Assembly (NCBI GenBank): GCA_041663185.1
Contig: JBAZQY010000001.1
Location: 233,087-297,086 of the forward strand
DNA length: 64,000 nucleotides
Source of the DNA: Minisyncoccota bacterium
GTDB taxonomy: Bacteria > Patescibacteriota > Minisyncoccia > Phycocordibacterales > UBA9973
Direction: 5' to 3'
A model generated the notes under the pieces. The model saw only the letters and a program-made list of their open reading frames with translations, did no database searches and was not told the origin of the DNA. Positions 10,887-56,809 of this stretch are shown here, piece after piece; position 1 is the stretch's first letter; every line of letters starts with the position of its first letter. The position numbers and the translations under genes are program-made.

Positions 10887-10984
10887 GGAAGCAAAAAGTA
10901 GAAAGTAGTATGTAGAAAGATTGGTTTGAAATATTTTATATTATGTTTTTGTTTTTTCCCTTACTACCTACTACTTACTACCTA
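10887..10984 (+). repeat. third copy of the GTAGTA/CTACTA palindromic element
   Basis: aagcaaaaagtagaaagtagtatgtagaaag ... cccttactacctactacttactacctattac between yidC and yidD. Confidence 0.55.
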
Positions 10985-11191
10985 TTACTTAATTGGGTCG
11001 TAATGATTTTTTTGCCAAGGATGACAACGAGAGATCCGAACAACACCCCGCCAAAGGCCAGTCCAGACTCCATATTTTAAAATGGCTTGTTTAGTATATT
11101 CTGAGCAGGTTGGCAAAAAGACACAAGATGAGTGAGATCGAAGTGGTATTTTTTGATAAATATTTATTAACCAAAGTAATATTTTTTTCAC
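10985..11191 (-). CDS. yidD: membrane protein insertion efficiency factor YidD
   Basis: FLPTCSEYT ... RCHPW signature. Confidence 0.8.
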   Translation of the reverse strand: MKKILLWLINIYQKIPLRSHSSCVFLPTCSEYTKQAILKYGVWTGLWRGVVRISRCHPWQKNHYDPIK

Positions 11192-38189: not shown

Positions 38190-38247
38190 GAAAAAATAAT
38201 TAGGAATTAATAATTAAGAATTACGAATTGAGAAAATAAATATAAAA

Positions 38248-38826: not shown

Positions 38827-38958
38827 GTATAAATAATAGCAAATATTGCTCTTTTGGGCTATTTCTGGTAATATTCTTGTATTAAGTTTTGCTGGTGTCT
38901 CGGCAGGATTTGAACCAAATTCTTAATTCGTAATTATTAATTCTTAATTAAATATAAT

Positions 38959-48028: not shown

Positions 48029-48382
48029 ATGGACTACATATCATACGAAGAATTTAAAAAGATGGATATCCGAGTTGGAACAATCAAGGAAGTTGAAATA
48101 ATTCCAGAGACCGACAAACTTTTACGTTGCCAGGTAGATTTTAATGAAATTAATGAAGAAGGAAATAAAAAGTTAAGACAAATTGTTTCAGGGATAAAAG
48201 AATATTATCCCGACCCACAGGTCTTAGTAGGGAAACAGGTACTATATATTGTAAATCTTGAACCAAGAAAAATTAAGGGATATGAAAGTAATGGAATGCT
48301 AATGGCGGTGGATGGAATCGATGGCAAGCCAGTTTTTCTTATTCCTGAAGTCGAAGTTAATCCCGGAAGTAGGGTGAGGTAA
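48029..48382 (+). CDS. tRNA-binding domain protein (CsaA/Trbp111-like)
   Basis: MDIRVGTIKEV ... IVSGI ... SNGMLMA OB-fold pattern. Confidence 0.7.
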   Translation: MDYISYEEFKKMDIRVGTIKEVEIIPETDKLLRCQVDFNEINEEGNKKLRQIVSGIKEYYPDPQVLVGKQVLYIVNLEPRKIKGYESNGMLMAVDGIDGKPVFLIPEVEVNPGSRVR

Positions 48383-48445
48383 TTAAGAATTAAAAATTAA
48401 GAATTAAAAAATGTCGAACCAATTAATTACTAGAACCTAATTCAA

Positions 48446-52067: not shown

Positions 52068-52856
52068 ATGAAAATAAAAATTTTATACGAAGATAAAAAT
52101 ATTTTAGTTATCGATAAACCAGCGGGTATTTCAGTGCATGGAGATGGTAAAACCAAAGAAGAAACAATTTCTGATTGGGTGCTTTCAAATTACCCATCAA
52201 TAAAAAATGTCGGAGAGCCAATTAAATTAAAAATTAAGAATGAGGAATTAAGAATTAATCGGCCGGGAATTGTCCACCGCTTAGATAAAGAAACTTCGGG
52301 AATTTTGATTATTGCTAAAAATCAAAAAACTTTTCTTTTTTTGAAGGAGCAATTTATGAACCATAAAGTTAAAAAAGTTTACCGAGCATTTGTTTATGGT
52401 TATGTTTCTGATCCCAAGGCTTCACTTCTTACCGGTGGAAGGGGAGTAATAAATGTTCCAATAGGTCGCTCATCAAAAGATATCAGGGCATATACTGCTG
52501 GGCGTGGAGCGAGAGCCCCACTTCGTGAGGCTGTGACAGAATATATTATTTTAAATAAGTTTACTGATTCGAGCGATGAAAATGAAAAGAAAAAAATTGA
52601 ACATCAGTATTCTTATATTGAAGCATATCCAAAAACTGGGCGAACTCATCAGATTAGAGTTCATATGCGTTATATTAATCACCCAGTAGTTTCTGACCCG
52701 ATTTATCGTGGAATAAAAGAGAAATCTTTAGGCATGAAGCGCCTCGCGCTTCATGCCTATTCGGCAACTTTTACTCTTCCAAATGGAAAAGTGAAAACTG
52801 TAGAATCTCCACTTCCGGCTGATTTCAAAAAGGTGTTAAAAACATTTTTGAATTAG
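52068..52856 (+). CDS. RluA-family pseudouridine synthase
   Basis: catalytic HRLDKETSGILIIAKN. Confidence 0.85.
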   Translation: MKIKILYEDKNILVIDKPAGISVHGDGKTKEETISDWVLSNYPSIKNVGEPIKLKIKNEELRINRPGIVHRLDKETSGILIIAKNQKTFLFLKEQFMNHKVKKVYRAFVYGYVSDPKASLLTGGRGVINVPIGRSSKDIRAYTAGRGARAPLREAVTEYIILNKFTDSSDENEKKKIEHQYSYIEAYPKTGRTHQIRVHMRYINHPVVSDPIYRGIKEKSLGMKRLALHAYSATFTLPNGKVKTVESPLPADFKKVLKTFLN

Positions 52857-53026: not shown

Positions 53027-53665
53027 ATGAGAACAAAAACTCTCGAGCAGAACACGGCGCAAGATTTCGCTGGACTGCAAATCGACCAGTTGAGCAAATT
53101 GCGCAACGGTAACATCACCTTTGAACAGGTGAAATGGTTTAACAACCTTACATTCGAGCAACGCGAAGCGTTGATGGGCAAGCAACCCGAAATGGTGCTT
53201 TTCCTGAAACTGCTTTCCGGAGCTGAAACGCTGATGCTTGATGCCCTCGATGGCACAGAGACATTGGCAACCGCTAAGGAAGTTTTTCCATCGGGTATTG
53301 ATGGCGACTTCAAAAACTGGGGCACCAACAAGTCCAGTATCGCTACCAAAGAACAGGCGGTAGAGGTACACGAACTAGTAAAGGATGGAACCTTTGCACA
53401 GATGTTTGGTTCTCTCGGGACCGATCTGGATAAGTGGTGTTTAACACAAGCCCAGATAAAGAACTTTTGTAAAAAATATCCCAACTGGTTACGCAAAGAC
53501 GGATATGTGACTTTCTTCCTATTTAAGGTTGAAGATCACTTCTTCGTTGCTCGCGTGCGCGTGCGCTCTGGTGGCTTGGGCGTCGACGTCGGCGGGTTCG
53601 GGGGCGGCGTCGTGTGGGGTTCTGACGTCCTTCCTCGTGTGGTAGTCCCGCAACAGGTTGCTTAG
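53027..53665 (+). CDS. DGR variable (target) protein; VR encoded at the C-terminus
   Basis: 212 aa; about 50% GC against about 33% in the flanks; last 39 codons form the VR. Confidence 0.8.
   Translation: MRTKTLEQNTAQDFAGLQIDQLSKLRNGNITFEQVKWFNNLTFEQREALMGKQPEMVLFLKLLSGAETLMLDALDGTETLATAKEVFPSGIDGDFKNWGTNKSSIATKEQAVEVHELVKDGTFAQMFGSLGTDLDKWCLTQAQIKNFCKKYPNWLRKDGYVTFFLFKVEDHFFVARVRVRSGGLGVDVGGFGGGVVWGSDVLPRVVVPQQVA
53536..53654 (+). repeat. DGR variable repeat (VR)
   Basis: 119 bp aligned to TR; 21 mismatches, all at TR adenines. Confidence 0.85.
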
Positions 53666-53687
53666 ACACTTAAATAATTTGATTCTT

Positions 53688-53721
53688 AATCCCTTTGATA
53701 CTTTGTCAGAGGGATTTTTTT
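53688..53721 (+). terminator. hairpin + T-run after the target gene
   Basis: aatccctttgatactttgtcagagggattttttt. Confidence 0.5.
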
Positions 53722-53963
53722 ATGTATAATTAAAATACAAGCGTGCGATACTTCATGGTTACGGCTACGAAGTCACTTTTGTGGAAAACCATTATTGAGA
53801 ATTTTGTTGGTTACGGCTTACAAAAGAGTGGTAATGTTTTTTCAAATTAAAAAATAATTTAGTTGGTGTAGTTTGCTTGTGAATTTTGATATTCCAAATG
53901 ATATACAGCACGATTCCTAATGGAAACATGTTTGAATCGGCAGTGAAATAGATGGCACACTAC

Positions 53964-54082
53964 ACAATTCTTCGTTGCTAACGTGAACGTGAACTCTGAT
54001 GGCTTGAACGTCAACGTCAACAGGTTCGAGAACGACAACGTGTGGAATTCTGACGTCCTTCCTCGTGTGGTAGTCCCGCAAC
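53964..54082 (+). repeat. DGR template repeat (TR), non-coding, rich in AAC triplets
   Basis: aacgtgaacgtgaac ... gagaacgacaac; identical 3' 40 nt (IMH-like) with the VR. Confidence 0.85.
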
Positions 54083-54100
54083 TAAATATTTCTCCCCTGA

Positions 54101-54442
54101 TTAATTCTTGGGAGTTTTTATTTCAAGTCCCTTTTTCCAACCACCTAACATTCGCCCAATTTCATCAAGTTGTGTTGACAGTGTAATGTATTTTTCGGTT
54201 GGTAAACATTTATTTTCCCAAGAAATCTGAAGGAAAAATTTTACTCCATCTAATTTTGAAATTGAGATAGTTAATCGATTGATTTTATTTTCTCCTGAAA
54301 GATATTGAGAAACAAAAATATTTTCCAAAAGTTCTAAAAAATATCCTTCAATTTTTTCTCCAATAGTGCGACGATACATCTTAGGGAAGTCAATAAAAAT
54401 CTTAAACCAGATAGAATAAGCACCTTTTGCTTTTATGAGCAC
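54101..54442 (-). CDS. avd: Avd-like accessory variability determinant (four-helix-bundle)
   Basis: 113 aa from a GTG start; C-terminal LDEIGRMLGGWKK matches the Avd/IVS family; lies between TR and RT on the opposite strand. Confidence 0.65.
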   Translation of the reverse strand: MLIKAKGAYSIWFKIFIDFPKMYRRTIGEKIEGYFLELLENIFVSQYLSGENKINRLTISISKLDGVKFFLQISWENKCLPTEKYITLSTQLDEIGRMLGGWKKGLEIKTPKN

Positions 54443-54453
54443 CTGAGGTGCTC

Positions 54454-54463
54454 GGGGGGGGGG
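54454..54463. repeat. G10 homopolymer tract (C10 on the avd strand) next to the 17-bp hairpin gagcacctgaggtgctc
   Basis: ten consecutive G at 54454-54463 in the avd/RT divergent spacer. Confidence 0.9.
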
Positions 54464-54493
54464 TAATTAATGAATTCATATAATTAAAATAAA

Positions 54494-55513
54494 ATGAAAA
54501 AATTTGATAATAAATATAATGATATCATATCTATAGAAAACTTACTTTTAGCTTGGCAGGAATTTCTAAAAGGCAAAAGAAAAAAGAAAGATGTTTGTGA
54601 ATTTCAATTAAAACTTATGGACAATATTTTTGACTTACATAATGATTTAAAAAACAAAACATACAAACACGGTGAATATATTGCTTTTAAAATTAATGAC
54701 CCCAAACCAAGAGATATTCATAAAGCAAGTGTCAGAGATAGATTACTTCATCATGCTATATACAGAATACTTTATCCATATTTTGATCAAAAATTCATTT
54801 ATGACTCGTATTCTTGTAGATTGGGTAAGGGGACTCATAAAGCCATAAACAGATTCAGAGATTTTTCTCGAATTGTCTCAAAAAACAGTACAAGGTCTTG
54901 CCTTGTACTAAAATGCGACATCAGAAAGTTCTTTGCTAGTATTAATCACCAAGTATTGAAAAACATTTTAGTAAAATACATGGATGATAAAGATACTCTT
55001 TGGCTTATTAACCAAATTGTAGACAGTTTTCAAACCACTTACAACTTTACCAAACTAACGCTATCGCGTTCCTTTGGTAAAGGACTTCCTTTGGGCAACT
55101 TAACTAGTCAACTGCTTGTGAATATTTATATGAATGAATTTGACCAATTTGTAAAAAACAAACTAAAGATAAAATACTATATCCGCTACGCGGATGATTT
55201 TGTCATTTTGCAAAATGACAAAATGAAACTTCTTGATAATTTAGATCGAATGAAAGAATTTTTAAGTAATGAATTAAAATTAAATATGCATCCAGATAAA
55301 ATATTTATTAAAACACTTTATTCTGGTATTGATTTCTTGGGATGGGTAAGTTTCCCAAACCATAGAGTTTTAAGAACATCAACCAAAAAGAGGATGTTTA
55401 GAAATTTGGAGAAGTGTAATTATAAAAAAGAAAGTGTAAATTCTTATTTGGGGATGTTGTCGCATGGAGATGGGTATAAGCTAGAAAATTTGATAAAAAT
55501 TTGCTTAAAATAG
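54494..55513 (+). CDS. DGR-type reverse transcriptase
   Basis: RT motifs [30 protein letters not shown] (DGR-style LGxxxSQ), RYADDFVIL (YADD). Confidence 0.9.
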
Positions 55514-56038: not shown

Positions 56039-56722
56039 ATGAGCAAGAGGGGACCACAACCAAAAAGGATTATAAATGAAAAATGGAATGCAAACTTAGC
56101 TTATGCAATTGGTCTACTCGCTACTGATGGTTGTCTGGCTAATGATGGGCTGTTAATTGATTTAACCTCAAAAGATAAAGAACAGCTATTAAATTTTTCT
56201 AAATGTGTTGGTGTAAATTTTAAGATAGGTAATAAGTGGAACTTAAAAGGAGATGAATGCCTAAGAATTCAATTTAAAAATAGAATTTTCTACGATTTTC
56301 TTTTGTCGATTGGGCTAACTTCTAAAAAATCATTAACTATGGGGAAATTAAAAGTGCCAGATAAATATTTTTTTGATTTTTTACGAGGGTGTTTTGATGG
56401 AGATGGTTGTTTTTATTCTTATTGGGATCCTAGATGGCGTTCGAGCCATATGTTTTATATTGAATTTGTTTCTGCCAGCAAAGAGCATATTGATTGGTTG
56501 CAACAAGAATTAAAAAATAACATTAAAGTAAATGGACATATCACTGTCGCTTTTAAAAAGAATAAATATTATCAACTAAAATATGCAAAAAAGGAAGCGA
56601 TGGAAATAATAAAGAAAATGTATTATAATCCCAATGTTGTTTGTTTATCTAGAAAAAAGATTAAAATCCAAAAAGCCCTAGAGATAGAGAAGAGACAACA
56701 GAAAAAATATTTAACAAAATAA
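56039..56722 (+). CDS. LAGLIDADG homing endonuclease (two-motif, monomeric type)
   Basis: AYAIGLLATDGCL and FLRGCFDGDGCF. Confidence 0.85.
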   Translation: MSKRGPQPKRIINEKWNANLAYAIGLLATDGCLANDGLLIDLTSKDKEQLLNFSKCVGVNFKIGNKWNLKGDECLRIQFKNRIFYDFLLSIGLTSKKSLTMGKLKVPDKYFFDFLRGCFDGDGCFYSYWDPRWRSSHMFYIEFVSASKEHIDWLQQELKNNIKVNGHITVAFKKNKYYQLKYAKKEAMEIIKKMYYNPNVVCLSRKKIKIQKALEIEKRQQKKYLTK

Positions 56723-56723
56723 T

Positions 56724-56809
56724 GCGCGGGTGGCGAAATCTGGTCAGACGCACTACCTTGAGGTGGTAGCGGGAGCAATCCTATGGAGGTTCGAATCCTC
56801 TCTCGCGCA
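56724..56809 (+). tRNA. tRNA-Leu (anticodon GAG), type II
   Basis: acceptor GCGCGGG/CTCGCGC, anticodon stem CTACC/GGTAG with loop TTGAGGT, long variable arm, T-arm GGAGGTTCGAATCCTCT; starts 2 nt after the HE stop. Confidence 0.8.

Follow-up and report, generated by a model that had tools for sequence, protein, structure and literature searches.

Simple-sequence-repeat (SSR) contingency loci, such as the poly-G tracts within open reading frames (ORFs) of Neisseria and Campylobacter or the CAAT repeat of Haemophilus lic, carry a repeat unit not divisible by three a few codons after the ATG. Strains that are otherwise identical differ in repeat length, databases contain both in-frame and out-of-frame alleles, one position can be occupied by different repeat types across lineages, and interrupted, 'locked' alleles are found. 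The same features are seen in the avd gene of a diversity-generating retroelement (DGR) and its relatives, which we describe here from a Minisyncoccota bacterium (assembly GCA_041663185.1). The DGR lies in a 64,000-nt stretch of contig JBAZQY010000001.1 (positions 233,087 to 297,086, forward strand), the whole of which is called the window below. The described SSR loci control surface or restriction-modification genes in host-adapted pathogens, whereas here the gene encodes an accessory factor of a targeted hypermutation machine in environmental bacteria of the candidate phyla radiation (CPR), and the repeat travels with the cassette across lineages.

Phasevarions, in which repeats control mod methyltransferases, and repeat-controlled mutator alleles are phase-variable global modifiers. 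There, as would be the case here, a stochastic repeat switch stands above a variation-generating system and exerts a second-order control of variability, but the downstream system of the present locus differs from that of phasevarions in that reverse transcription brings about a site-directed mutagenesis of a single target gene. Little is known of how DGRs are regulated, and under laboratory conditions most of them look silent. These elements are abundant in CPR bacteria, and according to passages of the survey by Wu et al. 2018 (PMC5758913), which compiled a 126-member CPR set, 90% of CPR DGRs have architecture B3, template repeat (TR)-(avd)-reverse transcriptase (RT). The DGR RT of the Bordetella phage system needs Avd for catalysis (bioRxiv 10.1101/2023.10.23.563531). 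Repeat-mediated phase variation and the B3 layout are thus both already known. Full-text literature searches and two large DGR surveys, a coverage that did not include the main paper on CPR DGRs, yielded no account of a phase-variable DGR or of a repeat within avd; Roux et al. 2021 make no mention of an avd repeat, and none is mentioned in the searched passages of the B3 survey (PMC5758913).

A repeat at the 5' end of avd

Exactly ten G stand at 54454-54463 of the window, abutting a 17-nt hairpin, as direct reading and a script both confirm. The first-pass annotation of this DNA had reported the pair, with the hairpin placed one nucleotide too far in, at 54438. The features of the avd-RT junction are as follows.

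54454..54463, minus strand: G10 tract (C10 in the avd sense), a homopolymer in avd codons 6-9 (Thr-Pro-Pro-Pro)
54437..54453, minus strand: hairpin GAGCACC-TGA-GGTGCTC, with a 7-bp stem and a 3-nt loop, directly 3' of the tract in the avd mRNA
54477..54479, minus strand: inferred true ATG of avd, out of frame with the Avd body at G10 and in frame at G9 or G12
54402..54479, minus strand: frameshifted leader ORF of the G10 allele, MNSLITPPPSTSGAHKSKRCLFYLV plus stop, 25 codons
54101..54442, minus strand: Avd body from an internal GTG, 113 aa, with the four-helix-bundle bAvd domain
54494..55513, plus strand: DGR RT, 339 aa, with the YADD motif and RVT_1 domain

The tract is indeed extreme for this genome. 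It is the sole run of G or C longer than 6 in the 64 kb (34.1% GC), and the number of G runs of at least 10 expected by chance is between 0.002 (independent bases) and 0.02 (first-order Markov); this expectation, together with the comparative data, rejects a chance origin. G10 is found in all three assemblies, namely an ENA megahit contig, the NCBI metagenome-assembled genome GCA_041664805.1 and a Logan contig of SRR6484324, of which the samples may coincide. Since different pipelines agree on it, the tract is not an artefact of a single assembler.

Related loci were gathered in three sets: 80 loci with RT relatives, 59-76% identical to the window RT, from species-representative genomes; 80 metagenome loci with Avd relatives, a set for which RT identity was not measured; and 80 viral contigs as an outgroup. 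A simple repeat stands at the position of G10 in 138 of 145 related B3-type CPR loci (~93%), which are spread across many named CPR groups. In 125 loci it is a poly-G (poly-C in the avd sense) of 6-13 nt with a mode of 9-10, in 12 a (GA)n, i.e. (TC)n, of 10-37 nt, and in one a heptamer array, which consists of eleven copies of GATTGCT (L083, 2403-2479) read in frame as SNQQSAI repeats. Furthermore, the (HT)n N-terminus of protein P0167 implies a (CA)n repeat at the avd 5' position. Overall the repeat is 6-77 nt long with units of 1, 2 or 7 nt, never divisible by 3, and lies 9-17 nt from the conserved first Avd helix in most loci and 4-52 nt from the RT start. In B1-type viral DGRs (avd-TR-RT, 31-43% RT identity), by comparison, a repeat near the avd 5' end occurs in 1 of 47 (Fisher p ~1e-33).

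Considering these data, G10 is probably an SSR contingency switch in the avd 5' coding region, which phase-varies Avd and hence DGR mutagenesis. Translation of Avd would start at ATG 54479-54477 on the minus strand with M-N-S-L-I-T, pass through the C-tract as Pro-Pro(-Pro), and continue as R-A-P-Q-V-L-I-K into the four-helix bundle. Slipped-strand mispairing in replication would change the repeat length and shift the reading frame, with G9 or G12 giving full-length Avd, and G10 or G11 a short peptide. Tract length would in this way switch the adenine-directed mutagenesis of the target on and off, heritably yet reversibly, and because Avd is required for RT catalysis in the Bordetella phage such a switch would gate mutagenesis. 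By analogy with that phage Avd would be essential in this DGR; out-of-frame alleles would presumably yield little or no Avd, and switching would be frequent and reversible.

Reading frame and tract length

The tract is located inside the avd ORF, downstream of the true ATG, and not in a promoter or 5' untranslated region (UTR). A switch at this position would therefore be translational, acting through a frameshift. The slipped-strand switch suggested in the first-pass annotation is retained in that the tract is hypermutable, tied to avd and different in length between near-identical contigs; its placing in a regulatory region has to be given up. Translated from ATG 54479-54477, the G9 and G12 versions give a 125- and a 126-aa Avd, G10 gives the 25-aa peptide and G11 one of 15 aa, so that the avd frame is broken at the tract in the window allele, which is in the out-of-frame OFF (+1) state. 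Over its full length the G9 product of the window can be aligned with homologues, among them P0122 (84% identity), whose N-terminus is MNTLIT. In the locus L164, where the tract is interrupted, the gene begins ATG AAT ACA TTA ATT ACC TCC TCC CGA, in frame.

Homologous proteins contain the same segment. Of the 120 top-ranking Avd homologues from the protein collection, 84 are extended at the N-terminus, with PP in 69 of the 84, and the extension follows the pattern M-x(3-20)-PP(P)-R/A-x-P-x-V/A-L. In the avd sense the homopolymer reads as Pro-Pro-Pro and (TC)n as (Ser-Leu)n. Homologues of 113/114 aa, which start MLI or MVLI, are truncated gene calls; a single cluster at 90% identity includes members of 125/127 aa as well as of 114 aa.

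The annotated GTG (54442-54440), which opens the 113-aa ORF of the window, lies in the 3' arm of the hairpin stem, itself encoding R-A-P-Q-V-L. It had been noted at first that the hairpin contains this codon, and this stands; its role as the avd start does not. From the comparison of relatives it encodes a conserved internal Val (by GTG, GTA or GTC), homologues start upstream of it, and it was rejected as the natural start. Annotators choose it because the G10 allele is out of frame. L089 has no canonical start at this position, and 68 of 128 loci lack any ATG, GTG or TTG from the repeat to the conserved helix, which leaves only upstream sites for translation to begin. Moreover, an ATG-initiated open frame leading into the repeat is kept in 124 of the 128 loci against 60 +/- 5 in shuffles, hence the start is maintained even in out-of-frame alleles. 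A Shine-Dalgarno (SD)-like motif lies upstream of 4 of the 45 long ORFs of the window against a 9% background. The organism seems to initiate translation essentially without SD sequences, and an SD argument was uninformative for either avd start as the genome barely uses them. Given that SD is hardly used and that the GTG is buried in a stem of -11.6 kcal/mol behind C10, the AU-rich and unstructured upstream ATG is the more plausible start.

Relatives without a pure repeat provide a control for the coding location. There are eleven (L055, L086, L151, L152, L155, L159, L163, L164, L166, L167 and L169), tract-less or interrupted, and in all 11 the upstream ATG opens the Avd frame, as in MSTSLRPPVVLVK and MSTSLRPPVVLVKTKE, compared to 44 of 128 unique repeat-bearing loci (Fisher p = 2e-5). 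An enrichment of in-frame alleles among the tract-bearing loci themselves was also looked for as a test and none was found; since such a test alone cannot separate a switch from a non-coding tract, it is the tract-less controls that are decisive. In one of these loci, L086 (Ga0180007_10012093), the tract has decayed to GGAGGG and avd is in frame from the upstream ATG. At the start of its RT, ...AAAATAAAAAAATTT..., the ATG of relatives is missing, and L086 may be a decaying cassette or use an alternative RT start.

Length polymorphism was observed among clonally related genomes of the relatives. Contigs with 100%-identical flanks, 120 nt on each side of the tract, formed 16 groups, and tract length differs in 8 of them; the comparison with related genomes that the first-pass annotation had called for thus supports a slipped-strand hypermutable site. 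The 4336-nt alignment of L012 and L127 has no mismatch, and its one gap, of 1 nt, is at the tract; L033/L097 (3744 nt) and L110/L114 (4333 nt) likewise show 0 mismatches and 1 gap. In L101/L102 and L104/L108 the differences are confined to the tract and 17 clustered positions in a ~90-nt window read as a variable repeat (VR). As near-identical contigs differ almost nowhere else, the variable places in such genomes are apparently the DGR target and the repeat. As read from the sequences, one strain group has four in-frame tracts (G9, G12, G12 and a 13-G substitution variant) next to an out-of-frame G11.

Clustered differences, 10-19 in ~90-nt windows read as VRs, were seen in pairs from different metagenome records (L101/L102, L104/L108, L100/L103 and L154/L156). 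They look like ongoing DGR activity, these windows being placed by their clustering and not mapped onto a TR/VR pair. The Logan contig of ERR4193205 (L247), from a relative strain, starts inside the G-tract at position 1 (GGGGTCTTATT...), as would be expected of an assembly graph broken at a homopolymer that is heterogeneous in length or prone to error.

The hairpin next to the tract has an energy of -10.1 kcal/mol alone and of -11.6 kcal/mol in the context of the avd-sense RNA (z = -4.5; none of 200 shuffles folds as well). In the Avd clade of the window 76% of cells are paired against 16-47% in slid-partner controls, and 4 of the 7 stem pairs are changed on both sides (GC to AU, CG to UA), and the covariation score is reached by 0 of 500 shuffles; one such switch combines a synonymous Ala-codon change with a Val-to-Ala change. 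Judged on these substitutions, selection acts on the hairpin in this clade. In other subclades its place is taken by different stems, GAGAATTACC/GGTAATTCTC and TTTTGCCA/TGGCAAAA. However, about half of the unique relatives, including the (GA)n group, have none, hence the hairpin is a frequent companion of the repeat and not a defining part of it. Candidate roles are hiding the internal GTG, pausing the polymerase or the ribosome, and promoting slippage. Folding energies on both strands were indecisive as to which strand forms it. Rfam searches at the avd-RT junction gave no family match in 16 loci; hits otherwise were terminator-like chance matches and a far sub-threshold one to RT-7 upstream of the TR.

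The DGR cassette and its surroundings

The window holds a complete DGR at 53027-55513. Besides the genes listed above it comprises the following.

53027-53665, plus strand: target gene, the 3' end of which is the VR
53540..53654, plus strand: VR, at the 3' end of the target gene, with 21 mismatches to the TR
53968..54082, plus strand: TR
53703..53730, plus strand: promoter-like site TTGTCA-16-TATAAT, upstream of the TR, 11/12 on consensus matches only

The type of RT, a TR/VR pair with adenine-only differences and the presence of Avd identify the element as a DGR. TR and VR are 115-nt repeats whose 21 mismatches all fall on TR adenines (21 of 26 A's) and whose last 31 nt are identical; a single VR is present within the window. 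The RT matches Pfam RVT_1 (E = 4e-22), contains the YADD motif in its translation and has >8000 homologues at E below 1e-30, many of them from CPR genomes. The minus-strand avd matches Pfam bAvd PF22296 (E = 2.9e-12, above the curated cut-off). RT, Avd body, TR and VR are all intact.

The order of target gene with VR, TR, reverse-strand avd and RT is that of architecture B3 (Wu et al. 2018, PMC5758913). The opposite orientation of avd had been called atypical for DGRs in the first-pass annotation, a view that does not hold: B3 dominates CPR DGRs in the passages of that survey, and all related loci for which upstream sequence is available have avd and RT in divergent orientation, so that the orientation is normal for the clade. 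As first noted, the tract is about 30 bp upstream of the RT, whose ATG at 54494 is 30 nt past G10 and only 14 nt from the divergent avd ATG.

The promoter-like site at 53703-53730 is found just past the target-gene terminator, with a terminator-like hairpin at 53688-53716, and no terminator was found between this site and the RT. From its sequence the site could drive a TR-RT transcript fully antisense to avd. The segment downstream of the TR is here the antisense of the avd coding sequence; its counterpart in the Bordetella phage is an essential 'spacer'. Between the promoter-like site and the TR lies a 240-nt non-coding stretch, which would form the 5' part of the DGR RNA. It contains a match to Rfam RT-7 RNA at 53795-53843 (+) that is far sub-threshold (20.6 bits vs a gathering score of 116.8; E = 0.008-0.017) and probably due to chance.

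The DGR is located between a pseudouridine synthase gene and rplS. Directly downstream of rplS is a free-standing LAGLIDADG-type endonuclease ORF (56039-56722, plus strand, 227 aa, Pfam E = 1.7e-7), directly followed by a tRNA gene at ~56724-56809 (L001 5231-5316). Elsewhere in the window (AATTAAG)n tandems of 4-5 copies occur at 38195-38234, 48381-48410 and 52225-52258, and an (AATTCTT)n, nearly the reverse complement of this heptamer, at 38918-38949. Heptamer tandem repeats AGTAGTA and TACTACC recur at 1890-1954, 2347-2373, 2915-2941 and 10962-10991; those near the window start may be repetitive coding sequence.

Explanations of the tract and what a switch would mean

Several observations weigh against phase variation of Avd as set out above. 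Length variation in the window's own organism, which a phase-variable DGR as first proposed would entail, was not seen: all assemblies, as consensus contigs, have G10, and neither the G9 nor the G12 Avd of this strain is present in a collection of 15 billion proteins. The tract-bearing loci are distributed as 44 ON, 45 OFF+1 and 27 OFF+2, OFF+1 being the commonest state (45 vs 27 OFF+2; binomial p = 0.04). Loci with the hairpin count 31 OFF+1, 19 ON and 11 OFF+2 against 14, 25 and 16 without it (chi-square p = 0.02, kinship ignored), and the window and its five close relatives (L084, L085, L089, L093 and L096) are all OFF+1. Seven contigs of one related population, from several sample accessions, that share the RT protein P0117 show no tract variation, all being G9 (OFF+1), hence switching is not rapid everywhere or OFF+1 is favoured. 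In L100/L103 and L154/L156 both consensus tracts are out of frame and clustered VR-like differences are nevertheless seen; out-of-frame alleles may therefore retain some activity. Short-read assemblies also carry some error in the length of homopolymers.

The excess of OFF+1, its association with the hairpin, its uniformity in the window's group and in the seven contigs, the VR-like differences beside out-of-frame tracts and the compensatory changes in the hairpin would also fit a programmed recoding, instead of or on top of a switch. The C-run and the hairpin would then form a slippage site, where the RNA polymerase drops or adds a C, or where tRNA-Pro slips +1 on CCC-C while the hairpin slows the ribosome; tract length would be a dosage dial and even out-of-frame alleles such as G10 would produce Avd at a set, low level. 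Transcriptional slippage is supported by homopolymers of at least 9, and a classic site for tRNA-Pro to slip +1 is CCC-C. Known cases of programmed slippage or frameshifting (dnaX, insertion sequence elements, prfB; tRNA-Pro on CCC-C) likewise combine a homopolymer and an adjacent stem-loop within an ORF whose downstream part is in another frame, and the +1 excess of hairpin-bearing loci here recalls them. However, a programmed site normally fixes one out-of-frame arrangement of the upstream and downstream ORFs, while here no frame is fixed, all three being common and a third of the loci being in frame. Furthermore, half of the loci have no hairpin, and where present it begins 0-2 nt past the run instead of the usual 5-9 nt; the (TC)n and heptamer repeats of some lineages are not known as ribosomal or polymerase slippage motifs of this kind, and the supporting statistics are not phylogenetically independent. 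We therefore regard recoding as rather unlikely. That tract and hairpin act as a DNA switch and a recoding site together, so that Avd dosage, and hence the hypermutation rate, would be graded, heritable and reversible with three or more levels, we also hold to be unlikely. Its output would then maybe be sensitive to the translation state, e.g. to poly-proline and CCC-C decoding, and the cassette would carry a 'mutation-rate dial' common to most CPR DGRs.

A transcriptional switch, as the first-pass annotation supposed, would make the tract a spacer or UP-type element in a shared avd/RT control region, or a part of the RT 5' UTR, and its length would adjust the geometry of the promoter of RT, avd or both. 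The 30 nt between tract and RT ATG would suit this, as would the TAnnnT hexamer (TAATAT, TAAAAT, TAGAAT or TATAAT) that directly follows the tract on the RT strand in many relatives; with the two ATGs 14 nt apart, the promoter of each gene must overlap the other gene. Promoter homopolymer switches, such as the poly-C of Bordetella fim and the poly-G of Neisseria porA/opc, likewise have a G/C homopolymer in a short divergent control region. But here the tract is inside an ORF, and its range of 6-77 nt and its distance of 4-52 nt from the RT start exclude a role as a 16-18-nt spacer. The TAnnnT is absent in whole subclades (e.g. TCCCAGA...), a scan found no -35/-10 pair flanking the tract, and tract-less relatives code straight through the position, which homologous proteins include. 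A -35/-10 spacer of ~17 bp in total was accordingly rejected for want of flanking hexamers and for the variable length and RT distance, and the G-tract as an SD for RT was rejected by the 4-52 nt spacing. A transcriptional switch is thus very unlikely, whereas a secondary effect of the tract on RT transcription is conceivable, the start codons being 14 nt apart.

It is just as improbable that the tract is a neutral hotspot, i.e. low-complexity sequence tolerated in a disordered N-terminal tail, with G10 as a frameshift that inactivates a DGR on its way to being lost. The out-of-frame window allele for which no in-frame variant was found, the decayed tract and apparent lack of an RT ATG in L086, and the loss or interruption of the tract in some lineages would be in keeping with decay. 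Neutrality is harder to reconcile with a long pure repeat kept at one position in 138 of 145 loci of many CPR groups with a unit never divisible by 3, or with the upstream ATG and open leader of 124 of 128 loci, out-of-frame ones included. Moreover, the clustered VR-like differences between near-identical contigs suggest ongoing diversification, and the window's RT, Avd body, TR and VR are intact.

Highly unlikely, in our view, is a role of hairpin and G-run as an RNA element of the TR-RT transcript, serving reverse transcription (RT/Avd binding, priming) or RT translation. The strong promoter-like site upstream of the TR and the lack of a terminator before RT do suggest a TR-antisense-avd-RT transcript that includes hairpin and G10, the fold of the RT-sense RNA has a slight advantage in mean stability (77 of 117 loci), and the TR-to-brt segment is functionally essential in the Bordetella phage. 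However, free length variation and replacement by (GA)n, by a heptamer array or by nothing are unlike structured RNA, the hairpin is absent in half of the loci and the junction has no Rfam match in the 16 loci searched. Finally, a sequencing or assembly artefact can be dismissed as extremely improbable: poly-G artefacts of two-colour Illumina chemistry exist and the L247 contig does start inside the tract, but G10 recurs in three assemblies from different pipelines, the tract is mid-contig at the homologous position in >130 loci from many studies, including 2011-2016 data, (GA)n replaces it in some, and in-frame versions are translated in homologues.

If Avd is phase-variable as we favour, the cassette apparently carries its own contingency repeat controlling targeted hypermutation, common to most sampled cassettes of this CPR DGR clade. 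Its avd is systematically mis-annotated, being truncated at an internal GTG/ATG or a later Met, which affects DGR surveys and attempts to express such proteins. A hypermutable repeat is present in this accessory gene in about nine in ten sampled cassettes of the clade, and targeted hypermutation would itself be stochastically switched. The target protein would then be diversified by only a subpopulation at any time, which would keep mutagenesis available at a limited cost.

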